Below, in pieces: positions 15,588 to 48,030 of a stretch of DNA of 64,000 nucleotides (the first letter of the stretch is position 1; each line of letters opens with the position of its first letter). The notes under the pieces were generated by a model. The model saw only the letters and a list, made by a program, of their open reading frames with translations, was not told the DNA's origin and ran no database searches. A program made the position numbers and the translations under genes. The stretch is from a phage, in NCBI GenBank assembly GCA_029945195.1, contig GCA_029945195.1_4117.1; one strand, given 5' to 3'.

Positions 15588-16181
15588 ATGAAAAAGAATG
15601 AATTAGATGAAGCAATTAAAGGTTTATCTAATGTATGTTTTAGTGGCGGGGCAGCAGGTGCTGACCGCCTTTTTTCTATCTATGCAAAAAATAATGGATT
15701 TGAAGTTATTAATTTTTCATTCAAAGGTCATGAGCATAGTGTAGATGAAAGTACTATATTAGAAATACCATCCAATATTCTATCTGATATTTCTATATTA
15801 AATCAACTAAACATTGCATGTTACTCGTTGCAGCGAAAAGTACCAAAACCTGGTTCTTATGTTTACAACTTACTTGCAAGGAATAGTTATCAGATACTTA
15901 ATACAGAAAGAATATATTGTATTGCAAATATCACATCACCAACTAAGGTAAGTGGTGGTACTGCATGGGCAGTACAGATGTATATGGATTCAGTTGAAAA
16001 TCCTGAAATTTATTGTTATGATATGAATTCACGTTCAGTATTTTATTTCGATACAGTACTGAAAGAGTTCACACAAACATTCGTCGTTCCAGCACCACAT
16101 GGTAACTGGACTGGTATTGGTTCACGCAATGCCACCGAAAAACATATGGAACATTTTATTACATTTTTCAAGGAAGAATAA
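15588..16181 (+). CDS. SLOG-like Rossmann-fold protein (DprA/LOG/YpsA-like)
   Basis: 197 aa; N-terminal FSGGAAGAD motif typical of the SLOG superfamily (inference from motif only); stop overlaps the start of the ThyA-family gene. Confidence 0.4.
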   Translation: MKKNELDEAIKGLSNVCFSGGAAGADRLFSIYAKNNGFEVINFSFKGHEHSVDESTILEIPSNILSDISILNQLNIACYSLQRKVPKPGSYVYNLLARNSYQILNTERIYCIANITSPTKVSGGTAWAVQMYMDSVENPEIYCYDMNSRSVFYFDTVLKEFTQTFVVPAPHGNWTGIGSRNATEKHMEHFITFFKEE

Positions 16182-17110
16182 TGAAACAACTACAAGAACT
16201 ATATCAAAAAATTCTAGATGAAGGCGTAGAAAGCGTTGACCGTACTGGTGTTGGAACAATCAAACTTATCGGTCAACAAATGCGTTTTGACCTTAAAGAT
16301 GGTTTCCCAGCAGTGACGACAAAACGTCTAGCTTGGAAAGCAATGACTTCAGAATTACTATGGTTTATTGAAGGTTCCCATGATGAGCGTCGCCTTTGTG
16401 AAATTTTGCATGGAACTCGTGATACAGAAAAGAAAACTATTTGGACAGATAATTACCTAAATCAAGGCGTTGCTCTTGGTTATACTGATGGTGAGTTAGG
16501 TCCAGTGTATGGTAAGCAATGGCGTGAATGGGAAGATTATAAATTTAGTTCCAGTACTGAAGAAATTCAAGAATTAAAAGATAAAGGATACAAAGTTATC
16601 GATTATACTGGTTCACATGGTGTTGTTATGAAACGTACAACTGACCAATTACAAGAACTAATCAAAGGTATAAAGTCCGATCCATATGGCCGTCGCCACA
16701 TTCTAAGTGCATGGAACGTTGGTGAGCTTGATGATATGACGTTACCACCTTGTCATAGCTTTGTGCAATTTTGTGTAGTGCAAGGAAAACTAAGCTGTAT
16801 TCTGCATCAACGCTCCGCTGATCTATTTTTAGGAGTTCCATTTAATATCAGTAGTTACTCACTACTAACTCATATGATTGCACAAATTACTGGTTTAGAT
16901 GTTGGTGAATTTATTTGGAATGGTGGTGATTGTCACATTTATAAAAACCACGTTGAACAAGTAAAAGAACAACTACAGCGAAAACCTCGTGAATTACCTG
17001 AATTGTGGCTTGATCCTACAATTACTAATATTGAAGATTTCACTATGGATTCTTTTAAATTAGTGAATTACAACCCAATGCCAACAATTAAAGCACCTAT
17101 GGCTGTATAA
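16181..17110 (+). CDS. thyA: thymidylate synthase family protein (ThyA-like; dUMP hydroxymethylase not excluded)
   Basis: 309 aa; ThyA hallmarks DRTGVGT, GPVYGKQWR, SAWNVGELD, catalytic PCH, QRSADLFLGVPFNISSY and C-terminal KAPMAV; ~29-aa insertion after GKQWREW. Confidence 0.85.
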   Translation: MKQLQELYQKILDEGVESVDRTGVGTIKLIGQQMRFDLKDGFPAVTTKRLAWKAMTSELLWFIEGSHDERRLCEILHGTRDTEKKTIWTDNYLNQGVALGYTDGELGPVYGKQWREWEDYKFSSSTEEIQELKDKGYKVIDYTGSHGVVMKRTTDQLQELIKGIKSDPYGRRHILSAWNVGELDDMTLPPCHSFVQFCVVQGKLSCILHQRSADLFLGVPFNISSYSLLTHMIAQITGLDVGEFIWNGGDCHIYKNHVEQVKEQLQRKPRELPELWLDPTITNIEDFTMDSFKLVNYNPMPTIKAPMAV

Positions 17111-17112
17111 AC

Positions 17113-17145
17113 GAAAAGGGAGAACATCAGTTCTCCCTTTTTTAT
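17113..17145. terminator. bidirectional rho-independent terminator between convergent genes
   Basis: aagggagaac-atca-gttctccctt hairpin flanked by an A-tract upstream and a T-tract downstream. Confidence 0.75.
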
Positions 17146-19109
17146 TATCTAATTGTTACCAATGTTCTTCCGTCGAAACGTACATCAGGAGTTGAAGGTA
17201 TACTAAACACTACGTTAGTGCCGTTAAACGTAACGCTATCGACCTCAACACGAGTATAGACACCAGGACTAACCTGTTCCTGTATCTCTGCTGTGACGAT
17301 GTTTGAGGCTGTTACAGTAAGGGTGTAGTAGTTACCACTTAATACCCAAGATGAAATTGTAAAAGCATCGGTTCTCACTGAACCTGAACCAATTGGAACC
17401 CATTGACCTTGAACTTTTTGCATTGAAGTACGCTCGGTATTGGAGTATGCAATCATACCATCAACGCCAACAGAGTTATCAATAGTAGCTAGTACTGGTA
17501 ATTGGATACCATATCTATTAAAACGTGTTCTTATAGTTCCATTATCATAGATACTTACATCAGCATAATTACCCATTGATAGTTTTAAATCAGAACTAAC
17601 TAATTGGATTGTACTTTGATTAGTAGTACTTTCTAATGTAATTATACCATTAGCTAATAGATTTATATTTTTAAATTTATTAGTTGTTCCATTGAAATTA
17701 GTGTTTGCTGTAAACGTACTAACTCCATTAACTGTAATTGTATCAGATGCAGCATCGCCTAATGTAGTATTACCTTGAATGTTCAAATTACCACTAGCAG
17801 TGATATTACTAGCTGATGTATCACCAGTCAATGTACTTGTACCATCAACCACAATATTACCATGAAACGCACTTTCACCATTTTTAAATTCAACTTGTAC
17901 TTTATTCATTGAACTAAATGAAATAATATTACTACTAGCACTTAGTCCAACATTAGTATTGGTTGCATTATCAAATCTTAGTACTGGGGTTGATGCTGGG
18001 GTTGAAGTTGTTTGGTATAATGTTAATGTTGAATTATTAATTCTAATACGTTCAGTTCCAGCAGTACTGAAACCAATTGCATCATCTGCTGGATGAAACA
18101 TACCAGTATTAGCGTCTGACCATTTTGCAGGATCATTACCTGGGTTATTGGTTGGATCAAATGGATTGTTATTAAATGTCAATGCTGGTGCTGCTGCACT
18201 ACCATAGACCACACCAAAACGCCCTGAGCCGCTTGTTCCATCATTATACATGGAATCACCAGTTCTACGTAAACACTCAATCACAACGTTATCTATGGAT
18301 GTTTGAACGGTCCCTGCGTTTGTCCTAAATTGACGATGATTTGCAATCATTACAGTATTGTCATATAATACTGAAGCAGCGGAAATGCTTGTTCTTGACT
18401 GGCGTAGACGTATGTTTTTATCTTCAGTTATAATAATCCAATCACCATCTGATAGTGCGGTTTGGTTCATTGGAACACCTGAAGCAAATGGTTTGGTTAA
18501 GTCAGCATCTGTTGCTAAATTTTTAAGACCATCATGACCAGTACTAGGAATAGATGCAGGAATAATTCTAGCGAAAGCGTATGTTACTAGTTTAGCACCA
18601 GATATATTTGGATTAGAGTCAACATAATATAAAATTTCAATCCAATTACCTTGTCCAGTTGGATTTGTAGGTGTAAATGTAACAGGACTTGTTTGTGGAT
18701 TATTTGCTTCATAATGGGCTTGTGCGGCATCCATAATACCACGAACAACATAATAATCACCATTTAGTGATGCTGCTGGTGCTGGTAGTGGTGTTTGTGC
18801 TAAAGGTGGATCAATATCATCTGGGATAGGATTGTATGTACCAACAAACTGTAAACCACTAGTTACTGAATCTGGTAATTGGGAAGTAAGAAGTTTACCA
18901 TTTGCATCTAAGTTTGCAAAGCGGCGATATGCCATAGTACCATCTTCAAAATCCAGAACACCTTCAAATGATTTCCATTCCTTATTGTATCTAATCATCC
19001 CTGATCTTATTACATCAGCGGTTTCTTTTGATGGTGCTTTCGGTAACTCTAAAAAAGATTTACTATCAATAATTACACCACCATCACCTCTAATTCGATT
19101 TATACTCAT
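17145..19109 (-). CDS. tail fibre protein
   Basis: 654 aa; ATG with GAGGA RBS; S/T/N/G-rich beta-rich sequence typical of phage fibres; first of several fibre-like genes on this strand. Confidence 0.65.
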   Translation of the reverse strand: MSINRIRGDGGVIIDSKSFLELPKAPSKETADVIRSGMIRYNKEWKSFEGVLDFEDGTMAYRRFANLDANGKLLTSQLPDSVTSGLQFVGTYNPIPDDIDPPLAQTPLPAPAASLNGDYYVVRGIMDAAQAHYEANNPQTSPVTFTPTNPTGQGNWIEILYYVDSNPNISGAKLVTYAFARIIPASIPSTGHDGLKNLATDADLTKPFASGVPMNQTALSDGDWIIITEDKNIRLRQSRTSISAASVLYDNTVMIANHRQFRTNAGTVQTSIDNVVIECLRRTGDSMYNDGTSGSGRFGVVYGSAAAPALTFNNNPFDPTNNPGNDPAKWSDANTGMFHPADDAIGFSTAGTERIRINNSTLTLYQTTSTPASTPVLRFDNATNTNVGLSASSNIISFSSMNKVQVEFKNGESAFHGNIVVDGTSTLTGDTSASNITASGNLNIQGNTTLGDAASDTITVNGVSTFTANTNFNGTTNKFKNINLLANGIITLESTTNQSTIQLVSSDLKLSMGNYADVSIYDNGTIRTRFNRYGIQLPVLATIDNSVGVDGMIAYSNTERTSMQKVQGQWVPIGSGSVRTDAFTISSWVLSGNYYTLTVTASNIVTAEIQEQVSPGVYTRVEVDSVTFNGTNVVFSIPSTPDVRFDGRTLVTIR

Positions 19110-19193
19110 TTAAATATTTCCTCAGAATAGATTTATATGATGTATTTATTTTAGTTAAAAGAAAAGGCCAAGCATAGGCTTGACCTTAAAAAA

Positions 19194-19973
19194 TTAACGT
19201 ATACGTTCAGGAATATCAACACCTTCATATACCCAAGTTGCAGCTTGTTGTGCCTTATAAATTGCATCAGGATCTAAATCATCAACTGCATCAATTGCTG
19301 CACACTGATTGTCACATTCTGTAAACAATTGCTCAATCATAGCAAAGGCTCCAGTGTATAGTTGTGTCATTTCAGTAGCAGATAATTTTACAATTGCGTC
19401 ATCAAGAAAAATAGAAACACTTTCAGAACCTGAAGTGACTTGTGTATAGTAATTAAGAAGCATTTGACGACCAGACATATCAGTACTGTAACGATGACCA
19501 TTGAACATATAACCAGAATTCATACGATTTGTACGTTCTGATATAGTTCTTGCTTTTAAATCAACTTTAACATCTGCTATTGGCATATCAATATAATGAT
19601 ATGTTTTAAGAACAGTTAGTGCTTTATATTCTTCGGTAGCGTCTTCTAAAAATTCAACAATAGGTTGATTTTCATCTTTTAATTTAATAAACTCCAACGG
19701 TTGTTCAATAGCATTAACATTTCCAACATTTTTATACACTAACCACCAAAAACCTTCTTCTTTTCTAACAGCATCATTAGGTTCTACTGGGGAACCATCT
19801 TTACTTGAAATACCATAAAGAGTTCTAATATCACTATAAAGATAACGATAGGTTTGTGGATCTTCTGGTGTTGCACCAGGACGTTCTTTAAGTCCTTTTA
19901 CACCAATTGGATTGGAAATAATGTTTCCCAATTCATAATTTTCTTTTGAATTTCCTTTCACATATGTGAACAT
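19194..19973 (-). CDS. hypothetical protein within the tail fibre cluster
   Basis: 259 aa; ATG with GAGGT RBS; a terminator-like hairpin follows its 3' end. Confidence 0.5.
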   Translation of the reverse strand: MFTYVKGNSKENYELGNIISNPIGVKGLKERPGATPEDPQTYRYLYSDIRTLYGISSKDGSPVEPNDAVRKEEGFWWLVYKNVGNVNAIEQPLEFIKLKDENQPIVEFLEDATEEYKALTVLKTYHYIDMPIADVKVDLKARTISERTNRMNSGYMFNGHRYSTDMSGRQMLLNYYTQVTSGSESVSIFLDDAIVKLSATEMTQLYTGAFAMIEQLFTECDNQCAAIDAVDDLDPDAIYKAQQAATWVYEGVDIPERIR

Positions 19974-20037
19974 ATAACTACCTCACTTGTTATGATGGTG
20001 TCACCCAAAATGAGTGACACCTTTATTATTATAATTA

Positions 20038-23000
20038 TTAAGCAGTACGTTGTGCAATAAACATATCTGTTACTGGACTCACACCGTCATAAATGACTTG
20101 GTAGATAGTTACAGAGTTTGCAGTTTTGTTCAGTGTGCCATCAACAACCGCATAAGTACCATCAGTAGTAAAGTTTCTATTACCTGTTGCATCTTGTTTC
20201 ACATAAATGTATACTGAAGATGCTTTACCACCACCGATTAGACCAGTGATTGGTGCTAGAGTGGTATCTTGATCTAGAGTGATAAAGTATACGTTGCTAG
20301 TACCGTCTGGGGTCCAAGTACCAGTTGGTGCGATAACAGAAGAAGTTACTTGATTAGGAATAACATCATATTTTTTAGTAGTTACTGTTGTAGTAGTTAG
20401 GTCAGCATTAGTAGTTGTTAATTGACCAGTTACAGTTACATCTTTATCAAATACTGCATTTTCTTTGAAAGAAGATGTTGCATTGACAGTTAATGTATCA
20501 GCAGCAGCGTCACCTAAAACAACACTACCATTTGCAGTCATTAAACCAGTAACAGTTAAAGTACCACCGATTGTTGCTGCTCCAGTAACAGATGCACTAG
20601 CAAGTGTTGCTGCACCAGAAGTAGTAATGGTAGTTACTGAAGTTGCTGCTAGGGTTGCAGTACCTGTTGCAGAAATATCACCACCAACAGTTAGGTTACC
20701 AGAAGTAATTCCAACGGTTCCAGTAATGTTAGCACCACTTGACATTGTTACTGCACCACCAAATGAACCAGTAGTAGTTACTTCAAGGGTGTTCCCTTTT
20801 AGTAGACCAGTTGCAGTAATACTTGTACCTGCGGTAATACTAGTACCAGCAGCAACACTGTTGGTTGCAGTTAATGATTTAACAGCCACGTCAGAGTTTG
20901 CTTGGTTTAGTGTTGCGTTAAGTAGACCAGTTACTGTAAAGTTACCGTTGTTAACTACGTTACCATTGATTGTTAAGTTGTTGTTTTGTGAACCAACATC
21001 ACCAATAGTTGCTGATTTGGAAATCAACTCTGCACCAGAAGTAATATTACCCGCTGCACTAATAGTGTCCGCCGCAACAACTGCATAAGGTTCAATTGTT
21101 TGACCACTAACGTCAATATCAGCGTTGATACCACCATCTACACGCAAGGAGCCAGCAATGTAAGTATTAGGGAAAATCTGAACTGTCTCTGGTTGATCGC
21201 CAATTTTAGTACCGATAATAACATCAGCACCAGTTTTAACTGCACCAGAGGTTGTTAGAGAACCTAAAGTTGTAGCACCAGTTACACCTAATGTACCACC
21301 AATTGTTGCGTTATTAGTAACTGCTAACGCAGCACCTTCACCATTAAGAGCGATTGATGGAGCAGATACTGCACCAGTTACGCCTAATGTGCCACCAATT
21401 GTTGCGTTGCCATCTGAATGTAGAGTTGTAGCTACAGAAAGACTGTTAGCAACTACATCAGTACTAGCTAAATCCAATGCACCTGGGGTTAATGTACCAG
21501 TAATGTTAACATTATTACCAAAGGTCGCTGCACCAGTCACATCTAGTGTAGTACTAAATGTACCAGATGTTGCAGAGATTGCACCTGAATCTAGTGATCC
21601 AACAGTTGCTTTACCAGTTACACCTAAAGTTCCACCAACAGTTCCATTTGTGGTTACATCCAATGTACCAGTACTTAGTTCTTGTGCGGTTACCTTACCG
21701 GATGCAGTAACAGTTGAAGTGGAAACACCACCAGTTAGAGTACTAGCACCAGTAACACTTAATGTGGTTGCCGCAGTTACGCTATTCACACTAAGATCAG
21801 CACCGGATAAGTCCAAACCACCTTCAGGAACAAATACACCCTTAACAGTTAGTTTTTGTACTGTACTATCACCTGTTACATCCAATGTAGAAGCAGTTAA
21901 ACCACCATTCATACTTGCTGCACCAGTAACACCTAGTGTAGTGGTTACAGTAGCACTATTAAGTGTTGAGCTACCAGAAATATTAGCACTAGAAGCAGTA
22001 ATAGTTCCAGAATCAACTTGTATACCACCAGCAACAACCTGAATTCCACCAGCATTAACTGTTAGTTTACCAGCAGTATTCAATGTATTTGAAACTGTTG
22101 TTGCACCAGTTAAAGTTGTAGTGCCAGTTACACCTAAGTTACCAGAAATAGATGGACTACCTGTAATGTTACCAGTAGTTAGTATCAAATCAGTACCTAC
22201 GGTAGTGGAGCCAGTACTTTCTAGTGTTACACCGACGATGTTTGCAGAACTTAGGTTAATAGTACCATCAACAGTTAAGTTACCTTGAACGGTTGCATCA
22301 CCTAGAGAAGTTAATGTCTTCACAGACACATCAGTTGTGCTAAGATCAATAACACCCGCAGTTAGTGTTCCAGATACTGCTAAATTACCAGTAATCGCGG
22401 TATTTTTAGTAATGGATACATTTTCTGCCGCTGAAGTAATAGAACCAACAGTAAGTACACCACCAACAGTTGCGTTATTAGTTACATTTAGAGCAGTTCC
22501 AACACCAGATAGTGTTGCTGACCCACCAGTAATTGCACCTGAGATTGAAGCTGTTGCTGCTGAAACATCACCAGAAACTACTGCATTTGTTGCATTTAGA
22601 GCAGACACAGTAACTTCAGTACTTTGAACTTTAGGTAGAACGTTGATACCTTCTGCACTACTAACTGTAATAATACCAGTACTTGTTAGAGATTTAACAG
22701 ATACATCAGCACCACTTAAATCAACTGTACCAGAAACAACAAGATCTCCACCAATATTTGCTCCAGCGGTAGTAGTAATGGATTTTGCACTTACATCAGT
22801 TGTGCTCAAATCAATTGCACCTGGTGTTACTGTACCAGAAACTGTTAGGTCACCAGTAATAGATGTATTATTGGAAATAGATACACCATCAACGTTACTA
22901 ATTGTTGGGGTTTCTACAGAAACTGCTTTAACTTTACCTGAAGAAGTTACGTCAGCTACGGTAGATGCACCAGTAACATTCAAATTAGTAATATTTGCAG

Positions 23001-25563
23001 TTGTTGAACCAAGGGTTGCAATAGTTGCATCAGTACTTTGAAGTTTAGGTAGAACACTACTAATTGTGGATTCATTACTAACAATTGCACCAGTACTAGT
23101 TAAAGATTTGACAGTAACATCAGCCGTAGTAAGATCTACTGTACCATTAACAGTTAGGTTACCACCAATAGTTGCACCAGCAGTAGTAGTAATGGATTTA
23201 GCATTAACATCAGTTGTTGCTAGATCGATAGAGCCTGGAATAACTGCACCAGTAACAGTTAGGTCACCAGTTACATTTGTATTATTGGAAATAGTGACAC
23301 CACTTGCATTTGAAATGGTTGGGGTAACCAACGATGCAGTTGTAGTTTCACCAGTTACAGTTAAAGTTGACCCAACTAGAACAGATGAGCTTGAGTAAAT
23401 TGTACCCAAATTAGCAGATCCGGTAACAGTTATATCATCAGCATTAACAGTAGTTGCCGTTATGGTAGTACTATTAAGTACTGGAAGTACGTTAGCATTA
23501 ACAAGATCATTACTTTTAACAATACCAGAAGTAGTTAATGATTTAACATTAAGGTCGGCTGCTGATAAATCAAAAGAGCCTTGAACTACTAAATCACCAC
23601 CAATAGTTGCACCAGCAGTAGTAGTGATTGATTTAGCATTAATATCGGTAGTGCTCAAGTCTAGAGAACCAACAGTTAAGCTACCAGTAATATCAACATT
23701 TTCTGTAAAGTTAGTATTACCACTAATAGTTGGTGCAGTCAGAGTTGTTGCACTAATATTAGTACCGTTAATTGTTTGCCCACTTACAGTTCCACTCGCA
23801 GTGATAGTAGGGGCCGTTACTTCAGTAGATGCACTAATTGTTGGTGCAGATACAGAAGTTGTACCAGTAATAGAACCAGAACTTACTGAACCAGCGGATA
23901 ATGCACCAGAAAGAGTTGCAGTTGTACCAGCAATATCACCAGTAACAGTTAGTTTAGCACCCACGGTAGTGTTACCAGTACTTTCAAGTGTTGCACCTTT
24001 AATATTTGCTGCCGCGACAACAGAATTAGGTGTTAGATCCTGCCCACTAACATCAACAGTTAGTCCAGTTACTGTTCCAGTAAATTCAACATCATTAAGA
24101 ATTGCTTTACCACCAACTTGTAGGAATGGTGTACCTGGAGCTTGTGTTTCGTTACCAGTAATAGTTAGGTAATCTAGTTTGTTTAGACCGTTACCAGTAA
24201 TACCATAAGTGGAAAGAGAAGCGTTACCGAAAGTTGCTGTTTTAAGAACGTTCAATGTAGAAGGAGAAACGACTTCTGATTGAACTTCGTTAGGTAGAAT
24301 AACTGTTGGGCGTTGACCTGGTGCAGTATATCCAAAACCTAGTTTCACTGCCGCATCTTGACTATTTTGACCTAAGCTGATAGCTTTAAAGGATGCAGTA
24401 CTGTTATAACCAGTAATATTAGAACCAAGAGTAACACCACCAACTAATGAAGTTACACCAGTAACGTTCAAAGATACTGCATTAATATCGTCTAGTTGGA
24501 ACGTTCCACCAAGAAGACCAGAAACATTAATGTTATTAAAATTAGCAGTACCAGTACTTTCGATATTTGGAATAGTTGCAGTTCCGGTTACTTCAAAGTC
24601 AGCAACTTTAGTTTTTCCTTTTTGAACTTCTAATAGTGGTGTGTCTGGTGATTGTGTATTGTTACCAGAAACTGTTAGATAATCTAATTTGTTTAGACCA
24701 TTACCAGTAATACCATAAGAAGATAATGACGCATTACCAAAAGAAGCAGAGGTCAATACTGTCAAGTTTGCAGGTGACATTAGCTCGGACTGAATTTCGT
24801 TTTGTAGAATAACAGTTGGGCGTTTACCAGGAGCAGTGTAAGGGAAGCTTAATCTGAAGGTTTGTGATTCAGAGTTAGAACCAATACGAATGTCTTTAAA
24901 AGTAGCAGTACTGTTAATACCAGTTACGTTAGCACCGAAAGTTACTGCACCTTGTTGGTTAGATGCACCAGTAACGTTCAATGTTACTGCATTTAAGTCA
25001 GATAGATTAAACTCACCACCAAGTGTACCACTAATTGTCACATCGTTAAATGTAGCAGTACCAGTACTACTAATATCTGTTGTACTTACATTAGTAATTT
25101 CTGCGGTATTAGCAGTAATTTTATCAAATGCAGCAGTAGTCCCAACATCAGCAGTAATATTACCTTTAAATGCTGTTGTTTCAGCAACTTCTAAGTTTTT
25201 AACTTTAGTTGCTTGTAGAGTGGTTGTACCAGCAGTTTGTGTAAAATCAGAACCAACTGATACAGTACCGTTAAAGGTAGCGTTTGAATTAATTGTTGCT
25301 GTATCAGACCCGACAACTGCACTACCGATTGTAGTATTACCCTCAACACCAAGACCACCAGAAAGTGTTGCTTTGCCACCTACATCTAAAGTAGATGTAA
25401 TGTTGGCAGTTGATGATTCAATGGCAGTAAAAGTTGCATTTGCAAAAGTTACAGTACCATTTACAGTTAGGTTATTGTTGAAAACAGCATTTCCTTTGAC
25501 TAAAAGATCCTTACCAACCGTACCAGCACCAGTAATATCTAAGTCAGTTTTTATTGAGTACAT
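20038..25563 (-). CDS. large repetitive tail fibre protein
   Basis: 1841 aa; extremely T/S/G/N/V-rich with several internal tandem repeat modules; ATG start. Confidence 0.75.
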   Translation of the reverse strand: MYSIKTDLDITGAGTVGKDLLVKGNAVFNNNLTVNGTVTFANATFTAIESSTANITSTLDVGGKATLSGGLGVEGNTTIGSAVVGSDTATINSNATFNGTVSVGSDFTQTAGTTTLQATKVKNLEVAETTAFKGNITADVGTTAAFDKITANTAEITNVSTTDISSTGTATFNDVTISGTLGGEFNLSDLNAVTLNVTGASNQQGAVTFGANVTGINSTATFKDIRIGSNSESQTFRLSFPYTAPGKRPTVILQNEIQSELMSPANLTVLTSASFGNASLSSYGITGNGLNKLDYLTVSGNNTQSPDTPLLEVQKGKTKVADFEVTGTATIPNIESTGTANFNNINVSGLLGGTFQLDDINAVSLNVTGVTSLVGGVTLGSNITGYNSTASFKAISLGQNSQDAAVKLGFGYTAPGQRPTVILPNEVQSEVVSPSTLNVLKTATFGNASLSTYGITGNGLNKLDYLTITGNETQAPGTPFLQVGGKAILNDVEFTGTVTGLTVDVSGQDLTPNSVVAAANIKGATLESTGNTTVGAKLTVTGDIAGTTATLSGALSAGSVSSGSITGTTSVSAPTISASTEVTAPTITASGTVSGQTINGTNISATTLTAPTISGNTNFTENVDITGSLTVGSLDLSTTDINAKSITTTAGATIGGDLVVQGSFDLSAADLNVKSLTTSGIVKSNDLVNANVLPVLNSTTITATTVNADDITVTGSANLGTIYSSSSVLVGSTLTVTGETTTASLVTPTISNASGVTISNNTNVTGDLTVTGAVIPGSIDLATTDVNAKSITTTAGATIGGNLTVNGTVDLTTADVTVKSLTSTGAIVSNESTISSVLPKLQSTDATIATLGSTTANITNLNVTGASTVADVTSSGKVKAVSVETPTISNVDGVSISNNTSITGDLTVSGTVTPGAIDLSTTDVSAKSITTTAGANIGGDLVVSGTVDLSGADVSVKSLTSTGIITVSSAEGINVLPKVQSTEVTVSALNATNAVVSGDVSAATASISGAITGGSATLSGVGTALNVTNNATVGGVLTVGSITSAAENVSITKNTAITGNLAVSGTLTAGVIDLSTTDVSVKTLTSLGDATVQGNLTVDGTINLSSANIVGVTLESTGSTTVGTDLILTTGNITGSPSISGNLGVTGTTTLTGATTVSNTLNTAGKLTVNAGGIQVVAGGIQVDSGTITASSANISGSSTLNSATVTTTLGVTGAASMNGGLTASTLDVTGDSTVQKLTVKGVFVPEGGLDLSGADLSVNSVTAATTLSVTGASTLTGGVSTSTVTASGKVTAQELSTGTLDVTTNGTVGGTLGVTGKATVGSLDSGAISATSGTFSTTLDVTGAATFGNNVNITGTLTPGALDLASTDVVANSLSVATTLHSDGNATIGGTLGVTGAVSAPSIALNGEGAALAVTNNATIGGTLGVTGATTLGSLTTSGAVKTGADVIIGTKIGDQPETVQIFPNTYIAGSLRVDGGINADIDVSGQTIEPYAVVAADTISAAGNITSGAELISKSATIGDVGSQNNNLTINGNVVNNGNFTVTGLLNATLNQANSDVAVKSLTATNSVAAGTSITAGTSITATGLLKGNTLEVTTTGSFGGAVTMSSGANITGTVGITSGNLTVGGDISATGTATLAATSVTTITTSGAATLASASVTGAATIGGTLTVTGLMTANGSVVLGDAAADTLTVNATSSFKENAVFDKDVTVTGQLTTTNADLTTTTVTTKKYDVIPNQVTSSVIAPTGTWTPDGTSNVYFITLDQDTTLAPITGLIGGGKASSVYIYVKQDATGNRNFTTDGTYAVVDGTLNKTANSVTIYQVIYDGVSPVTDMFIAQRTA
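22386..23766 (-). repeat. about four tandem ~390-bp (~130-aa) repeats inside the large fibre gene
   Basis: Repeated protein module (I/L)DLSTTD(V/I)(N/S)AKSITTTAGA.IGG.L.V.G..DL..AD..VKSLT..G with matching nucleotide repeats; coordinates approximate. Confidence 0.6.
24066..25056 (-). repeat. tandem duplication of a ~165-aa (~500-bp) module inside the large fibre gene
   Basis: Two consecutive segments share long identities (e.g. ...FGNASLS.YGITGNGLNKLDYLT..GN.TQ.P.TP.L); nucleotide identity visible around 24140-24300 versus 24640-24800. Confidence 0.7.
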
Positions 25564-25659
25564 TTATACCCTCCATTATAACCTTGTTAATATGTATATA
25601 TTTAGTTTTATTATGCTGTTATCCAACAATTAATATGTTATTTGACAAAAGCAAATATA

Positions 25660-25702
25660 ATAAAAACCAGACTTATTTAGAACAAGTCTGGTTAATTTTT
25701 TT
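25660..25702. terminator. bidirectional hairpin terminator between two fibre genes
   Basis: Perfect 10-bp stem aaccagactt / aagtctggtt with an A-tract on one side and a T-tract on the other. Confidence 0.65.
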
Positions 25703-26597
25703 ACTTACCAGAGATGACAATCTTACCACTGAAAGAAATATCAGAAGTGAAGATTACATCACCAGTACTACTAATTTGTGTATCAGTCACTACCAATTCA
25801 AATGGAGATGACGAAACACTCCCAGGTGTTTTATTTGCATAAATTGAAATATACAAATTATCTGGTGTTTGATTGTGTTCAGATGCAGGAATAGTGATTG
25901 TAAAATCACCATCACTAGAAACCCAATCTGCTTGGTTTACCAATTTACTATAAGGTACTGTCATTGTTGTTGCTCCTATAATGTTTACTTTAACACTTGC
26001 ATAATCTGTGATTTGACCAATCACATCAATTGTTATATCCCCAATACCACTAACTGTTACTGTGGTTTGGAATACTGATTCCAATGCAACATTACCTGGG
26101 TCACCTTGTAGTTGGATCATAATATCAGAACCTCTACCATGAACTGATTCTGGTAGTGTGTAAGTATAATGATCAGTAGTATCTGGCACTAATGTAAATG
26201 CAGAAACAGGAACTATTTCAGTAGTTACATATGAGCTATCAGTCCCAGGTGAGCTACCTTTAAATGGTTTCCAAATACCAAGATCTTTAATATAAATTTG
26301 AAGAACATTAGTACTATCAACCAAAAAGTAAACGTCACCATCTAGACCGATCGAATCGGATGGTGCTGTTGTTCCACGTAAGATACCAGAACTACCACCA
26401 CCACTGTGTGCGTTTAAATATCCCAATGTAACCAAGTGTGTGTTTGCAGTTGGTTCACCTGCTGAAATTGGAAGAAGTTGTGTTCCTGAGTAGTTTTGAA
26501 TTTGCACAACACTACCATTTGTGGTAATCTGTGCACCATTCTTCCCAAGAATGAAGGACTTCTTCATGGTTCCTTCTAAATTAGAAAAAACTGCCAT
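25701..26597 (-). CDS. tail fibre or tailspike protein sharing an N-terminal anchor domain with the next gene
   Basis: 298 aa; N-terminus MAVFSNLEGTMKKSFILGKNGAQ collinear with MAVFSNFEGTMQPKFILGKKGAS of ORF 26614..28755; AAGGAG RBS. Confidence 0.65.
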   Translation of the reverse strand: MAVFSNLEGTMKKSFILGKNGAQITTNGSVVQIQNYSGTQLLPISAGEPTANTHLVTLGYLNAHSGGGSSGILRGTTAPSDSIGLDGDVYFLVDSTNVLQIYIKDLGIWKPFKGSSPGTDSSYVTTEIVPVSAFTLVPDTTDHYTYTLPESVHGRGSDIMIQLQGDPGNVALESVFQTTVTVSGIGDITIDVIGQITDYASVKVNIIGATTMTVPYSKLVNQADWVSSDGDFTITIPASEHNQTPDNLYISIYANKTPGSVSSSPFELVVTDTQISSTGDVIFTSDISFSGKIVISGK

Positions 26598-26613
26598 TTT
26601 AATATAATCTCCT

Positions 26614-28755
26614 TTATGGTAGGGTTATGTAAGTTACGGGTTGGGCAGCTTTTAATGCTGCACCAGCGGCAGTTGCTGTTATGATAGGATCTGCAATATC
26701 AATTCTATATACGTTGTTTACAACATACACTGCACGAGTTATATACGTTCTCAAATCACCACCATTTTCACCAGCACCGGATATAATGATCTCAGTACCA
26801 GCAGCTTTTGCATATTGGTTTTCACCCCATGACACACCCAATGCTTCTATGTATGTTTGTCCTGCTACCGTTTGTCTAATTGTGTCATATTTTCCGAAAA
26901 AAGAACCACCAACAGTTACAATATATTTTCCACCCGATTGTTTATGAATAATCGTGCCTTCAGAGAAATAGCGTCCCCCAGGAAAAGTATCGTATGGAAT
27001 ATAATATTGCTCAACTACAGGTATCAGTACTGGGCCACGGTGTCCTGTACCATCGATTGCAGTTGTAACTTTAAAGTTATTAGATGATTGGTCTATTCTG
27101 TCTACATACATTTTAGAAAAACTATATTTTGAAACATTACAATCATCTTGAACAACACAGTTAGTCCAATTAGTATAAGTATATTTAGAGCGAGTATAGA
27201 TACCACCACCTTCGCCTTCGGTAGAGAGGTGTTGACCAATTACATCTAATTCTTTAGTTCTAATATCACTAAATTTAGATGATGATGGCAAACCACGCCA
27301 AAGGATTTTAGAACAGGTGATATTGCTCAATTCTGTATTATTTAACCAATTATCAGAACCGGAAGTATAAACAAGTATAGAAGACTCTGGAATATAGAGA
27401 TTAGAAATTTTAAAGTTTCTAGGTGGTCCAGCAAAACGACCAGAAGTTACACCCCAGTTTATTGAAACCATTCTATTTGTGATAGAAGGATCATTAAGCA
27501 AATGACCAGTCAACCCATCAATAATGAATTCTTTCGAACCATAAGTTATAACACCAGCAGTGGTTAATCCAGTACCAACAGAAACTAAAGATGATGGATA
27601 AACTTCATTATTAAGTATTTTAAAGTCCATTCCTAATTCAACGTGGATACATTGTCTAACATTATATAGTCTGTTATTTTTAATAACAAAGTTTCTGACA
27701 TATTGTGTATCTGGTGCATCTAAACCATAAGGACCAGAACCAGCAACGCCAATACCAATGCCCCAGTTTGAAAGTGGGATTGGAGCGTTAGAACCATCAA
27801 CGTTTTCAATTACGTTTCCTTCAATCACAAAACCATCAGGATAATGTGAGTTAATTACGTTTAGTTCAATTGCATCACCATATATATCATGTATGTGGTT
27901 ATATGAATATCTACCAACCTTCATTTTCTCACCAGTACCTTGTTGAAGAACACCATACTTACATTGGGTCATTTCATTAAAGCAAAAATCTATTGTTCCT
28001 GGTTGTGTCATACCTTGCATTAAAAATGCAGCAGTACTTGTGATGTTTATAAATTTATTAAAATAAAACTTACCATCGCCACCGAAGAATTTTAAATAAC
28101 ATCCAGTAAGTGTTGCAAATTGTATTTGGGAATTAATAACGGATACCATAGTACCACCATTACCAGTAATAGTTCCCCCAAACCAAGTTACATCTTCCAG
28201 GTATATTGCAGTTTTGATACGGTAATTACCACCAGCCTGAATTTGGATTTTATTTTCTTTAGCATAAGCAGCACATAAATTTACAGCAGCAGTGTCATCA
28301 GTTTCGCCATCACCTTTAGCACCAAATTCTTCTGGTGTTATATAAAACTGGGCCTGTTGAACTGTACCTCCAGTAATAAGTCCGATGAAATCGCCACCAT
28401 TTTTACTGGATATAACTTTTTTATTAATGTATAATGATTTTACCCATGTGCCATTACTTTTTGCAAAAATATCAACAATACCATCTTCATCAATTTGAAA
28501 ATACGTATTATTGTTCTTTCCTACATCATCGGTAGGGGGTACAACACCAAATAATGCATTAGGGTTATCTTCAAGATATTTTACGTTAACTGCTGAATTA
28601 GGGTCAGATGAAGTTCCTACCTTCAGTGGTAGGAACTGTTCTCCTAGATAATCTTTTATAGAAACTGAATCATTGATAAAATTTATTGAAGCACCTTTTT
28701 TCCCCAATATGAATTTGGGCTGCATAGTTCCTTCAAAATTAGAAAATACTGCCAT
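26614..28755 (-). CDS. tailspike with pectate-lyase-like beta-helix (putative polysaccharide depolymerase)
   Basis: 713 aa; shared N-terminal anchor; EEFGAKGDGETDDTAAVNL motif characteristic of pectate-lyase-superfamily phage depolymerases; GGGAGGA RBS. Confidence 0.75.
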   Translation of the reverse strand: MAVFSNFEGTMQPKFILGKKGASINFINDSVSIKDYLGEQFLPLKVGTSSDPNSAVNVKYLEDNPNALFGVVPPTDDVGKNNNTYFQIDEDGIVDIFAKSNGTWVKSLYINKKVISSKNGGDFIGLITGGTVQQAQFYITPEEFGAKGDGETDDTAAVNLCAAYAKENKIQIQAGGNYRIKTAIYLEDVTWFGGTITGNGGTMVSVINSQIQFATLTGCYLKFFGGDGKFYFNKFINITSTAAFLMQGMTQPGTIDFCFNEMTQCKYGVLQQGTGEKMKVGRYSYNHIHDIYGDAIELNVINSHYPDGFVIEGNVIENVDGSNAPIPLSNWGIGIGVAGSGPYGLDAPDTQYVRNFVIKNNRLYNVRQCIHVELGMDFKILNNEVYPSSLVSVGTGLTTAGVITYGSKEFIIDGLTGHLLNDPSITNRMVSINWGVTSGRFAGPPRNFKISNLYIPESSILVYTSGSDNWLNNTELSNITCSKILWRGLPSSSKFSDIRTKELDVIGQHLSTEGEGGGIYTRSKYTYTNWTNCVVQDDCNVSKYSFSKMYVDRIDQSSNNFKVTTAIDGTGHRGPVLIPVVEQYYIPYDTFPGGRYFSEGTIIHKQSGGKYIVTVGGSFFGKYDTIRQTVAGQTYIEALGVSWGENQYAKAAGTEIIISGAGENGGDLRTYITRAVYVVNNVYRIDIADPIITATAAGAALKAAQPVTYITLP

Positions 28756-28769
28756 TATGACATCCTCCC

Positions 28770-29897
28770 TTAAATATTATCTTGAATCGGTTGGATAGGA
28801 GCTTGCCATGAAAGAGTACAAATAATTTCCATTTTTCCATAAGGACTGTTGTTAACAGAATCGTTGAATACACATGAAATAATTTCATCAACATCGGATG
28901 CTGCATGATTAGTTTCATTAACAATAAAACGCATCTGACGATTGATATCAAAGTAGGAAGTTGGTGCAATTACAGTCCCACCAATATCTTCTTGTGCTTC
29001 ACCACCAAAACGTACAAACATATCAGTTACAGGAAGAGAATAAGGTTGTATAACGTTTACATCAATATTAGAAACTACATATCCAGCAGGACACGTACCA
29101 ATAACTAATAGTGCGTTAGTCCATGAGCTATCTATTGTATTTCTAATAGAAATTGTATCTTTACCTGGTGCACCTGGTTCGCCTTGTATACCTTGAATAC
29201 CTTGCTGACCTTCTTTACCACGGAATAGAATACCCTCACTCCACTCTTTTGCAGGAGGGGTAGTTGTAGTTACTTCATCAACATAATATAGTTTTCCATC
29301 AGTGTTGTTATAAAAACAATAATCAACTGGAAGATTTTCAATACTTGGAAATTGATCACCACTGCTATCAATATGGAAACGACCACGCGGACCTTGTTCA
29401 CCACGGAAAGGTATACCATCACTCCAAGTAGCAGTTACACTTTGATAGAAATAAAGTTTACCATCTTGAGTATTATAAAATGTATAGTTATCAAAAAGAC
29501 CAGTTGTTGGGAAAGTAGTTCCAGCACTATCAATGTGGAACGGCTTACCCGCTTCACCCGTATCACCTTTACCAAACTCAACACTAATCCATGTACTTGT
29601 CGGATCTTGTGCATCATTTGATTTAAAGTATAGAGTACTGGTATTGTTAGCCAAGCTTAAGTAGCACCACCCAAGTGGTTCACCAACTTTAAATTGTTCG
29701 GAAGGAATTTCAAAACCAATCTCATTAGGATAAAAGTTTTTACCATTCTCGCCATTCTGTCCTACAACAAGACCTAAATCTTGAATTGTGTTATCTGCAT
29801 AGGTTACAATTAAATGCCCAGCACCATTAATAACTAGACTTTTGATGCCGGAGTTATTACATGAACCACTGGACCCATTGTTAAATGAAATTGTCAT
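28770..29897 (-). CDS. tail fibre protein with short collagen-like Gly-X-Y segments
   Basis: ORF track start at 29933 is a CTG; the ATG at 29897 (MTISFNNG...) has an AAGGGA RBS; contains GKEGQQGIQGIQGEPGAPGKD and shorter G-X-Y runs. Confidence 0.6.
   Translation of the reverse strand: MTISFNNGSSGSCNNSGIKSLVINGAGHLIVTYADNTIQDLGLVVGQNGENGKNFYPNEIGFEIPSEQFKVGEPLGWCYLSLANNTSTLYFKSNDAQDPTSTWISVEFGKGDTGEAGKPFHIDSAGTTFPTTGLFDNYTFYNTQDGKLYFYQSVTATWSDGIPFRGEQGPRGRFHIDSSGDQFPSIENLPVDYCFYNNTDGKLYYVDEVTTTTPPAKEWSEGILFRGKEGQQGIQGIQGEPGAPGKDTISIRNTIDSSWTNALLVIGTCPAGYVVSNIDVNVIQPYSLPVTDMFVRFGGEAQEDIGGTVIAPTSYFDINRQMRFIVNETNHAASDVDEIISCVFNDSVNNSPYGKMEIICTLSWQAPIQPIQDNI
29156..29225 (-). repeat. collagen-like Gly-X-Y tract (7 triplets) within the fibre gene
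   Basis: Encodes GKEGQQGIQGIQGEPGAPG; read directly from the reverse complement of cctggtgcacctggttcgccttgtatacc... Confidence 0.7.
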
Positions 29898-30007
29898 AAT
29901 ATTTCCCTTGTATGAGTTAATGTCATATACCAATATTTATCAGTACAAAATACATTTCGTTATCATTAATAAATAAATGAAAGTTCACTACTAAAAGGGC
30001 TTAAACA

Positions 30008-30505
30008 ATGGCATTAAGATCAAAAGACTTTCTCTTCAGAAGAAAAACAAAAGATGGTTCATGGCAAGATTTTCCTGAATCTGATAGCTGGTATCCAGCT
30101 AACTTGGATTATCACTGGAATGAACAAACGTTACCACTCGCAAGTGGTGGCTACTATGGCTGTACTACAGGTTTACATACTATTTCATTTACACTACGTA
30201 ATTTTATTGGTAGAATTTATGTGTTAGCTACATTAGCTAGTAATCCTACTGATGATGATTGGTTTCCAATTAAATTCACTGAAAGTTGTAATTATTATCT
30301 TGAATTTACTGATATGGTTATTTTAAATCCAAATGGTGGGGATTTAATTAGACAACAAGGAACTACCGGAACATTTGCTGAAACAGTAACTGGTAATTTT
30401 ACTTACCTTAAAGTTGGTATAGACCGTGATTATATTAGTAAGTATCCATCAGATGTCCAAAAAAGTTTAGCTGGGAAGTTAGAACAAATTTTAATTAACT
30501 ACTAA
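30008..30505 (+). CDS. hypothetical protein
   Basis: 165 aa; ATG start; first of three plus-strand genes between the fibre cluster and the Nudix gene. Confidence 0.5.
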   Translation: MALRSKDFLFRRKTKDGSWQDFPESDSWYPANLDYHWNEQTLPLASGGYYGCTTGLHTISFTLRNFIGRIYVLATLASNPTDDDWFPIKFTESCNYYLEFTDMVILNPNGGDLIRQQGTTGTFAETVTGNFTYLKVGIDRDYISKYPSDVQKSLAGKLEQILINY

Positions 30506-30514
30506 GGATTAGAA

Positions 30515-31123
30515 ATGAAATTAGAAACAGAACAACCAAAACTATTTGTTAAAGGTCATGTCCTAATTACTGACGTTACTGATCCATCAAATCAAAAAAT
30601 CGTTTTAGATAAATCTAACGCTATTCACCCTGAAAATATGAGTACTGCCATTGCTAATGCGTTAGCATATAATCAAGACAGTACTGGTATTCCTATTGGT
30701 TCTATTAGCGAGATGCGTTTTGGTAATGGTGGTACAGTAGTTTTAAGTACTGGTCGTGTTACTTATAAAAAACCACGTGTTACATCATTTGGTGGTTTGT
30801 ATTCACAAACATATTTGAAAAAAATCAACCCACGAATTACGGCAGGTATTGATTCACAATACAATAATATTACAACTGTACATATACCAGGACAGTCCTA
30901 TACTGATATTGTATGTATTTGTACTCTAGGGTTAGGTGAACCATCCGACCAAGGTGTAAGCTCAGGGACAAGCATGGATGGAACTTATGTGTTTGATGAA
31001 TTGGGATTATACACGGATGGCGATAGTGGTATTCCTTTAACCCATATCATTTTTCACCCAGTTGAGAAAAGTGCAAACCGTGTCTTACAAATTAAATACA
31101 CAGTTCGTGTACAATTACAATAA
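30515..31123 (+). CDS. hypothetical protein (possibly structural)
   Basis: 202 aa; AGGA RBS; tightly spaced with flanking ORFs. Confidence 0.5.
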   Translation: MKLETEQPKLFVKGHVLITDVTDPSNQKIVLDKSNAIHPENMSTAIANALAYNQDSTGIPIGSISEMRFGNGGTVVLSTGRVTYKKPRVTSFGGLYSQTYLKKINPRITAGIDSQYNNITTVHIPGQSYTDIVCICTLGLGEPSDQGVSSGTSMDGTYVFDELGLYTDGDSGIPLTHIIFHPVEKSANRVLQIKYTVRVQLQ

Positions 31124-31135
31124 TGGGGACATATA

Positions 31136-32236
31136 ATGAGTGTTAATTATACAATTTATAGAAGTAATGGTAGTGTTTATGCTACCATTCCAAATAATGT
31201 TATTTTAGGACCAAACCAGCCCGGAAGTAACCCAGTTCCGTTAAATTTAGTTGGTAGAAATAAAGTAAGTTACGGTCAAGCATGGAATGAAAACTTTTTA
31301 CATTTAGTTGAAAATTTCAGTTCAGCATCTGCACCACGTGGCAACGTCAATGGTCAACTTTGGTATAGAAACACTGGTAGTACTGGTGAGTTATTGATAT
31401 CATTAGTTGATAATGCTAGACAACCTGCTGATATGGTAAGTGAAGCTGAGTGGGCGTCTATCCCTATGATTACTGTTTTTAACACAGTGCCTGATGGTGA
31501 AAATAGTGTTATGGGTCGTATGGTATTAACTAGTAACGGTGATTCTCTTCGTGTGTTAATGAAAAACAAAGAATGGCGTGAAATTCAAACATCTAGACCA
31601 GAAAACAAAGAGTATTCATCATTATTAGATATTAACTATGATAATGGTAAAAAATATATAGAGTTCACACAAAGTAATAGTACTAAACCAATTGCGTATT
31701 TTAACTTAGGTGGTACTTCACAAGTAGATACAAATAACTGGACAACATTAACTAATGGTACTGGTGTCTTTGAATTTGGTAGCAACTATTTCTATGAATT
31801 AAAAATTATGATTAGAGAAGTAAATGATTCTTCTGGTGAGATAGTTTCTCTTCCATACAATTCAAAAACCTTTTTTATAAAAGGGCAATTTTATGTAGAT
31901 AATCAAGGAACTTTTGTTCCTGGTTCGGTGGGGGCAAGTCAAATGCCAGACCCACGTAGGATTACACAATTAGAATCCATAAAAGATGTTATTACCAGTA
32001 GTCGCCCAAACTGGGACGTAAATATTGTTATTAATGGTGTAGATCCATCTATCCCAAATCCTAATGGAACATCTAAAGCTGATTATGAAAATTGGGTTAT
32101 CAATTCTCTAAACTCAAATAAAAATTTAGGTTTTCGAGTTGATGGTAGCATTAGTAATCTAACTGCTGGTGAATCCGTTAAACTACAAGCATCCGTGTTG
32201 TTAAATATTACAGGTATTCCGATTATTGGAGTATAA
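31136..32236 (+). CDS. hypothetical protein (possibly structural)
   Basis: 366 aa; followed by a bidirectional terminator. Confidence 0.5.
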   Translation: MSVNYTIYRSNGSVYATIPNNVILGPNQPGSNPVPLNLVGRNKVSYGQAWNENFLHLVENFSSASAPRGNVNGQLWYRNTGSTGELLISLVDNARQPADMVSEAEWASIPMITVFNTVPDGENSVMGRMVLTSNGDSLRVLMKNKEWREIQTSRPENKEYSSLLDINYDNGKKYIEFTQSNSTKPIAYFNLGGTSQVDTNNWTTLTNGTGVFEFGSNYFYELKIMIREVNDSSGEIVSLPYNSKTFFIKGQFYVDNQGTFVPGSVGASQMPDPRRITQLESIKDVITSSRPNWDVNIVINGVDPSIPNPNGTSKADYENWVINSLNSNKNLGFRVDGSISNLTAGESVKLQASVLLNITGIPIIGV

Positions 32237-47984: not shown

Positions 47985-48030
47985 TTTTGGACTCCATATA
48001 ATTCGTTCATTCATTTGATTTATTTATGAT

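Follow-up and report, generated by a model that had tools for sequence, protein, structure and literature searches.

The stretch of phage DNA analysed here, a 64,000-nucleotide window on contig GCA_029945195.1_4117.1 of GenBank assembly GCA_029945195.1, contains at positions 17145–29933 a group of minus-strand genes for fibre- and spike-like proteins. We read this region, with a probability of roughly 0.7, as the distal host-recognition genes of a jumbo myovirus of Escherichia coli, genus Asteriusvirus (121Q/PBECO4/SHEFM2K-type, Rak2-like), which are predicted to form three transcription units and to include a chimeric, anchor-bearing colanidase tailspike that was inserted into an ancestral locus. 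All 12,789 bases of the region are identical (100%) to Escherichia phage SHEFM2K (PQ390715), and the corresponding regions of 121Q, phAPEC6, G17, Sharanji and SP27 are 99.5–99.9% identical to it (99.7% for both 121Q and Sharanji); all six are Rak2-like jumbo myoviruses of about 350 kb belonging to this genus. The six genes of the cluster have their counterparts, in identical order, in 121Q genes 569–574, of which GenBank labels 569, 570, 572 and 574 as structural protein, 571 as long tail fiber proximal subunit, and 573 as colanic acid-degrading protein. An earlier note, made from the sequence alone, had named five open reading frames (ORFs) here, encoding proteins of 654, 1841, 298, 713 and 375 residues, and all five are present on the minus strand; its description of the first four as consecutive fibre genes was right as to the genes and wrong as to strict adjacency, because a 259-residue DUF4376 ORF sits between the 654- and 1841-residue genes.

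The evidence for this reading begins with the 713-residue protein, in which the earlier note had recognized a probable depolymerase, and a depolymerase-type tailspike is indeed what the comparisons return. Residues 96–712 match the crystallised tailspike gp150 of phage phi92 (PDB 6E0V) with an E value of 4e-235 and 57% identity, and against full-length gp150 (804 residues) 353 of 619 aligned positions are identical, spanning gp150 residues 189–801; in the same full-length comparison no similarity was found between the two N-termini, that of gp150 being 188 residues long. The protein is assigned to PHROG 6117, "colanic acid degradation" (877 bits), its precomputed Pfam annotation is PF27800 (WcaM), and the phi92 gp150 record is itself annotated as a colanidase tailspike. 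The motif EEFGAKGDGETDDTAAV, which lies where the gp150-like catalytic region begins, aligns with PEQFGAIGDGVTDDTQAI of gp150, and a match to the pectate-lyase-like family PF12708 over residues 143–250 stays below threshold (24.3 bits against 27). A right-handed beta-helix fold can be predicted from the 57% identity to the crystallised protein and, since gp150 has been reported to hydrolyse colanic acid at the beta-1,4 glucose–fucose bond (Xu et al. 2025, as cited in PMC13450770), the same activity would be expected of the 713-residue protein. As many as 256 phage records contain the gp150-type catalytic module, and they belong to unrelated groups, namely Stephanstirmvirinae, Vequintavirinae, Phapecoctavirus and small podoviruses; in each case it sits behind a lineage-specific N-terminus, and its homologues are annotated as tailspikes. 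Because the module recurs in this manner, the 713-residue protein is, as judged from the alignments, a chimera of a Rak2-type anchor of about 105 residues and a mobile gp150-type catalytic and C-terminal body.

The anchor half of this chimera is shared with the neighbouring 298-residue protein. The pairwise alignment that the earlier note had called for gives 41 identities in 109 positions (38%; BLASTP E 1e-19), and the Smith–Waterman score of 192, set against 27.5 ± 4.9 (maximum 52) in 2000 shuffles (z = 33), rules out low complexity or chance as the origin of the similarity. The claim that the two proteins begin with near-identical N-termini of about 25 residues survives as to the shared start and fails as to near-identity: the first 28 residues hold 18 identities, and the homology runs far past residue 25. 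Among the ORFs of the window this N-terminus was found in these two proteins and in no others, and the anchor (the first ~65–105 residues) has no Pfam or PDB-sequence match. Past its own anchor, the 298-residue protein consists of two tandem beta-sandwich domains (residues ~124–296), and the same tandem C-terminus of the family is also found behind an unrelated N-terminus. Searches of PDB sequences with the 298-, 375- and 654-residue families, both as single sequences and as profiles, returned nothing significant. Foldseek comparison of the 298-residue model with BFVD returned family members together with collagen/Mtd_N-type tail-fibre proteins; the lead towards homology between the 298- and 375-residue families that came from this search was dropped at an hhalign probability of 0.2%. 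Likewise, proteins of about 375 residues that match the C-terminus of the 298-residue profile were considered as relatives of the 366-residue gp577 protein encoded elsewhere in the window, and they proved to be a separate, unrelated family with nothing but the tandem beta-sandwich module in common.

Beyond the window, the distribution of the anchor can be followed at two depths. Matches found by tblastn are confined to Rak2-like jumbo phages, with two copies in Asteriusvirus genomes and one each in RaK2, K64-1, GAP32, CBB, Serratia BF, Yersinia fHe-Yen9, Munch, 7t3 and XaC1. When a profile was searched against 1.8 billion representative proteins, positions 1 to ~70 were found at the extreme N-terminus of proteins of 705–1366 residues with beta-helix, Peptidase_S74 or BNR modules; among them are a 780-residue spike that has a pectate-lyase-like motif as well as a Peptidase_S74 chaperone, a 705-residue Beta_helix spike, and BNR-repeat fibres of 1204–1366 residues. 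Positions ~62–112 of the profile correspond to a short repeat that is widespread in tail fibres. At least seven further clusters of long proteins, their distal modules unrelated, begin with the first ~65 residues, which bears out the modular anchor that the earlier note had proposed; the shared N-terminus is, on these comparisons, a genuine module whose use extends well beyond the SHEFM2K-type phage. The 780- and 705-residue spikes, which carry different enzymes, are encoded together on one 120-kb Rak2-like metagenomic contig (SRR18476386). On that contig the anchor-bearing spikes flank two fibres (902 and 919 residues) that share another N-terminus (MSKKI.G.L.V), which may be a second anchor system, and the family PF27114 (Phage_tail_beta), recorded on the metagenomic spikes, was rejected as the identity of the anchor, since the window proteins carry no record of it. 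Tentatively, and with rather less than even confidence, we put forward the wider proposal that Rak2-like jumbo phages possess a hitherto undescribed plug-in docking module in these first ~65–105 residues (MA[VI][FY]SNxxGTM...LGKxG...), one that differs from the gp10/XD system on which CBA120 and RaK2 rely and that would mount colanidase, other beta-helix depolymerases equipped with S74 chaperones, fibres of 1200–1366 residues with BNR repeats, and tandem Ig-like tips on one conserved virion site.

The history of the locus can be read from the gene orders of relatives. In Cronobacter phage GAP32 (GAP32_218–222) the order runs td, a 645-residue protein, a 212-residue protein, the long fibre, a 287-residue protein, the tail protein, three small genes, MutT and the gp15-like gene, which is the order of the window except that there is no colanidase. 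The colanidase is therefore an Asteriusvirus-specific insertion into an ancestral locus that lacked it. The two anchors of the window are 38–44% identical and no closer to each other than either is to the anchors of other genera, so the duplication or acquisition would be old, and in more distant Asteriusviruses the anchor of the colanidase is conserved at 58–84% together with the enzyme. The locus has also lost and gained genes elsewhere. RaK2 keeps the tail protein and a homologue of the 654-residue protein without its central shaft, having lost the long fibre and its chaperone, and RaK2 and K64-1 encode a 115-residue "virion structural protein" (RaK2 ORF061w) in which the first ~91 residues of the 298-residue family are followed by 24 unrelated ones. 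This ORF looks like a deletion scar from the loss of the long fibre and chaperone gene, which is consistent with replacement of these fibres by the gp526–534 system of RaK2; with its unrelated, scar-like end, we rejected it as proof of a conserved anchor partner in RaK2. In vB_Ec-M-J and JNE01, one or two extra long-fibre genes (582 and 1049 residues; 1628 residues) lie between the homologues of the 1841- and 298-residue genes, and each of these two records shows the colanidase broken into two ORFs. In Escherichia phage JP4, residues 152–662 of the colanidase are deleted in frame between GDGE and GAGE micro-homologies, leaving a 201-residue remnant made of the anchor and the last 54 residues. 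Taken as a whole, the cluster is, by comparison of these genomes, a variable cassette.

Within this cassette, spacing and hairpins suggest three co-oriented transcription units: one with the 375-, 713- and 298-residue genes, one with the 1841-residue fibre and the DUF4376 chaperone, and one with the 654-residue gene. The gaps between the 375-, 713- and 298-residue genes are 14–16 nt, and the 713-residue gene has a strong Shine–Dalgarno sequence and starts 14 nt past the upstream gene. The hairpin between the 298- and 1841-residue genes, with a 13-bp stem followed by a T-run, would close the first predicted unit; a terminator-like hairpin follows the DUF4376 gene, and a 13-pair hairpin between the convergent thymidylate synthase and 654-residue genes is a probable bidirectional terminator (Table 1). 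No T4-type late promoter TATAAATA was found in a search of the interval 16–33 kb, and sigma-70-like sites are not enriched (47 against 52.6 expected). Between the fibre and chaperone genes, at 19974–20037 on the minus strand, lies a perfect 9-bp hairpin GGTGTCACTCATTTTGGGTGACACC with no T-run, which may be an element of RNA processing or stability.

The longest product of the cluster, the 1841-residue protein (PHROG 4549, "tail fiber"), is rich in T, G, S, V and A and repetitive throughout, with two repeats of ~170 residues (141–338 and 316–507, 50–65% identity), three of ~110 residues (612–720, 757–869 and 895–1001, 51–64% identity), and a C-terminal tip domain. It matches the putative tail fibre of phage phiTE (PDB 9CUY, chain g) with E 4e-30 over four stretches, among them residues 1657–1838 against 612–792, and 337 phage records contain its tip domain, which is common in Vequintavirinae-type lateral fibres. 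Residues 1–204 of the phiTE fibre, a helical bundle attached to the wedge and sheath initiator, gave no alignment with it, and therefore the virion attachment of the 1841-residue fibre probably differs. Scaling from the long tail fibre of phiTE (512 Å), whose predicted architecture fits the 793-residue homologue, we infer a length of about 119 nm for the 1841-residue fibre. Four ORFs of 182–247 codons that run antisense within its gene (20465–25633, plus strand) are very probably artefacts of the repetitive T/G/S/V-rich coding. The gene directly 3′ of it encodes the 259-residue protein, which carries Pfam PF14301 (DUF4376) at residues 135–236 (34.5 bits, cutoff 25). DUF4376 is the C-terminal domain of V22 gp27, for which a fibre chaperone function has been demonstrated experimentally (PMC7289586, PMC10579305), and the 259-residue protein is thus a probable chaperone or cap for the upstream 1841-residue fibre.

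The two remaining proteins of the cluster are fibre-like in layout. The 375-residue protein (PHROG 13565, "tail protein") has 64 homologues at 42–92% identity, almost all of them full-length, and a homologue occupies the same position in the Rak2-like loci that we examined. It consists of an N-terminal region, three short G-X-Y runs of three triplets, each followed by a beta repeat of ~55 residues, a further run of seven triplets (residues 227–247), and a C-terminal globular domain, with an internal repeat (101–170 against 156–230) at 45% identity. The collagen-like segments attributed to it earlier are thus present but short: the protein scores 15.9 bits where the gathering score of the Pfam Collagen family (PF01391) is 27.2, and 16 of the 42 family members give a PF01391 match at E ≤ 1. 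We regard it as a candidate short trimeric fibre. Its gene begins at 29897 with an ATG that is served by a Shine–Dalgarno sequence and is the annotated start; the upstream TTG at 29933, which would give 387 residues, was judged spurious. The 654-residue protein comprises a conserved N-terminal body (1 to ~365), a shaft of variable length (~365–527) and a C-terminal beta-sandwich tip (527–654); its 114 homologues range from 362 to 1101 residues and differ mainly in the central shaft, from which RaK2 ORF060w lacks residues ~345–527. It shows weak repeat similarity to the 1841-residue fibre, and its AlphaFold 2 model (pLDDT, the predicted local distance difference test, 71) gave no strong fold match.

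These parts can be assembled into a working mechanism. The shared anchor would trimerise and so plug the 298- and 713-residue proteins into equivalent sites of a conserved virion component, for which the baseplate periphery and the co-transcribed 375-residue protein are the candidates. The 1841-residue fibre would make the first, long-range contact, and the colanidase would strip the slime so that fibres and baseplate could reach their receptors; colanic acid is a common enterobacterial slime and not a serotype receptor. Virion incorporation of the colanidase is argued for by its predicted virion-type N-terminal anchor. Mass spectrometry of phAPEC6 virions detected gp256 (180 kDa), the equivalent of the 1841-residue fibre, and found gp253 (41 kDa), the equivalent of the 375-residue protein, to be abundant, with 65.6% coverage. 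Several observations weigh against the reading as a whole. The phAPEC6 virion table holds no homologues of the 713-, 298-, 259- and 654-residue proteins, which may stem from these genes being unannotated in the phAPEC6 record; fold searches with the anchor returned no diagnostic match; the terminator-like consensus was matched 10 times against 6.6 ± 2.4 expected, and these are pattern matches only; and the in-frame deletion in JP4 shows that one isolate or more can do without the colanidase, at any rate in the laboratory. The last of these, together with the split ORFs of vB_Ec-M-J and JNE01, the absence of the colanidase from the phAPEC6 table, and the absence of a structural label on 121Q gp573, could also be read to mean that the colanidase is a decaying or soluble accessory gene rather than a functional virion spike, its N-terminal similarity being a relic of acquisition. 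We consider this unlikely, given that the gene is intact and at least 99% conserved in about 20 independent isolates, that its Shine–Dalgarno sequence and close spacing to the upstream gene are in place, that anchor and enzyme have been kept together in more distant Asteriusviruses, that gp150-type homologues are annotated as tailspikes, and that a gene left unannotated in phAPEC6 could not be scored in the mass-spectrometry search.

Two further alternatives concern the place of the 1841-residue fibre. The earlier note had envisaged a branched fibre and a multivalent host range, with the 1841-residue protein as a RaK2/CBA120-like stem on which the 298- and 713-residue proteins dock side by side through their shared N-terminus. 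The shared anchor is real and the two anchor genes are adjacent, the related RaK2 is documented to have branched multi-spike fibres that are put together from conserved N-terminal domains (PMC10253068), and the joint loss in RaK2 of the long fibre and most of the 298-residue gene is compatible with a physical link. Pfam and PHROG scans, however, detected no gp10-like/XD docking domain of the CBA120/RaK2 stem type in the 1841-residue protein or its neighbours, the terminator-like hairpin separates the anchor genes from the fibre gene and groups them with the 375-residue gene, electron micrographs of phAPEC6 show hairs that are unbranched and, at the baseplate, six short fibres, and in the metagenomic relative the anchor-bearing spikes stand in another gene neighbourhood, beside fibres with a different N-terminus. 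Multivalency is further disfavoured by the narrow host ranges of close relatives, Sharanji infecting K-12-type strains only and JP4 lysing 3 of 68 isolates. We therefore hold the branched, multivalent arrangement to be improbable. A better prospect, though one to which we give well under an even chance, is that the 1841-residue protein forms the ~100-nm "hair" seen along both tail and capsid of phAPEC6- and CBB-type phages, entangling the flagellum or the surface, and that the short baseplate fibres are made of the 375-, 654- or 298-residue proteins. The short baseplate fibres of CBB measure 28.6 nm and its hairs 119 nm, and the length scaled from phiTE is far above the former and close to the latter, so that the 1841-residue fibre may be a hair and not a baseplate fibre; its equivalent is abundant in phAPEC6 virions, SHEFM2K is described as flagellotropic (Alsharif et al. 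2025, as cited in PMC11895373), and the closest homologue of the fibre with a solved structure belongs to a flagellotropic phage. On the other side, GAP32 has a homologous fibre and hairs are undescribed there, the authors of the CBB study expected hair genes to be absent from GAP32, and the C-terminal tip is common in Vequintavirinae lateral fibres that have no link to flagella.

What this cluster offers is best seen against what was already known. The phage, its genes and the colanidase annotation were public, and as an instance of modular host-recognition proteins the cluster is clear but ordinary. The principle of a conserved anchor with exchangeable modules is textbook knowledge for CBA120, G7C, phi92 and RaK2. 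In the papers that we read, we did not find a description of where exactly the chimera is joined, of how the anchor is reused across the family, or of the insertions and deletions that the locus has undergone, and we regard these as useful details rather than as a new kind of system. The swapping of receptor-binding proteins is the main route to the engineering of host range, for which the residues of a portable anchor must be known; the recombination joint of the Asteriusvirus colanidase is placed here at about residue 105, and the reuse of a ~65–105-residue anchor on very different modules is a handle for the retargeting of jumbo phages. The pairing of a slime-degrading spike with the long fibre of a reportedly flagellotropic phage bears on passage through biofilm slime and, if the proposal is true, a plug-in anchor and a fibre of ~119 nm would explain how flagellum capture and slime degradation are combined in giant phages.

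Table 1. Positions of the genes, domains and hairpins discussed, in coordinates of the 64,000-nucleotide window.
Feature	Position	Strand	Basis
Hairpin (13 pairs) between convergent thymidylate synthase and 654-residue genes, probable bidirectional terminator	17113–17142	unstranded	consensus scan and sequence
Gene for 654-residue fibre-like protein (121Q gp569)	17145–19109	minus	ORF
Terminator-like hairpin after DUF4376 gene	19164–19187	minus	consensus scan and sequence
Gene for 259-residue DUF4376 protein (121Q gp570)	19194–19973	minus	ORF and Pfam PF14301
Gene for 1841-residue long fibre (121Q gp571, phAPEC6 gp256)	20038–25563	minus	ORF and PHROG 4549
Hairpin (13-bp stem, then T-run) between 298- and 1841-residue genes	25665–25693	minus	consensus scan and sequence
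Gene for 298-residue small spike or adaptor (121Q gp572)	25701–26597	minus	ORF
Anchor of 298-residue protein, residues 1–~112	26262–26597	minus	
Gene for 713-residue predicted colanidase tailspike (121Q gp573)	26614–28755	minus	ORF and gp150 homology
Motif EEFGAKGDGETDDTAAV, residues 142–158 of predicted colanidase	28282–28332	minus	translation
Anchor domain of predicted colanidase, residues 1–105	28441–28755	minus	homology to 298-residue protein
Gene for 375-residue "tail protein" (121Q gp574)	28770–29897	minus	ATG with Shine–Dalgarno

The surroundings of the cluster are those of a tail and baseplate region. One flank is formed by the convergent thymidylate synthase gene (16181–17110, plus strand), whose phAPEC6 homologue gp259c appears in the virion mass-spectrometry table with 3 peptides, an odd place to find a nucleotide-metabolism enzyme. 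On the other flank lie three small divergent virion genes, MutT, and the gene for a T4 gp15-like protein, beyond which follow baseplate genes for a 3333-residue protein, a 1153-residue wedge and a gp5-like lysozyme spike. The three divergent genes (165, 202 and 366 codons; 30008–32236, plus strand) hold their place in both GAP32 and RaK2; phAPEC6 virions contain the products of two of them (gp251c and gp250c), and the group may join the same tail or baseplate assembly. The 3333-residue ORF (38013–48014, minus strand) has no Pfam match and adjoins the 1153-residue wedge gene, and its phAPEC6 equivalent, gp245 (382 kDa), is a virion protein.

The cluster can be set beside several known systems. 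Compared with phi92 gp150 (PDB 6E0V/6E0W), the colanidase aligns end to end over residues ~106–713, with the GDGxTDD motif region and C-terminus both covered, whereas a 105-residue Rak2-like anchor here takes the place of the 188-residue virion-attachment N-terminus there; phi92 is a 148-kb member of the Stephanstirmvirinae, in contrast to the 348-kb jumbo phage here, for which activity and virion site are predictions from sequence. The loci of GAP32 and other Rak2-like phages keep the gene order at a protein identity of 53–58%, GAP32 differing by its want of the colanidase gene. With the long fibre of phiTE, a member of the Vequintavirinae, the 1841-residue protein shares homologous beta-helical shaft repeats and a C-terminal tip of ~180 residues, and both phages are reported to be flagellotropic, whereas the phiTE fibre is less than half as long (793 residues against 1841) and its N-terminal attachment region is unmatched. 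As in the gp26/gp27 pair of Alteromonas phage V22, the gene of a DUF4376 protein lies immediately 3′ of the fibre gene; unlike in V22 gp27, the N-terminal half of the 259-residue protein is unrelated and, since its 121Q homologue is labelled a structural protein, it may remain on the virion. From the branched complexes of CBA120 (TSP1–4) and RaK2 (gp526–gp534; PMC10253068) the cluster differs in that no T4 gp10-like XD branching domains were detected and only one depolymerase is present, that the anchor has no detectable sequence relation to CBA120 D1/D2 or to the N-termini of the RaK2 tail-fibre proteins, that RaK2 has a single anchor copy in the ORF061w scar, and that no branched fibres are seen in micrographs of the near-identical phAPEC6; what it has in common with them is the use of conserved N-terminal domains to carry exchangeable distal modules, at least one of which is a depolymerase.

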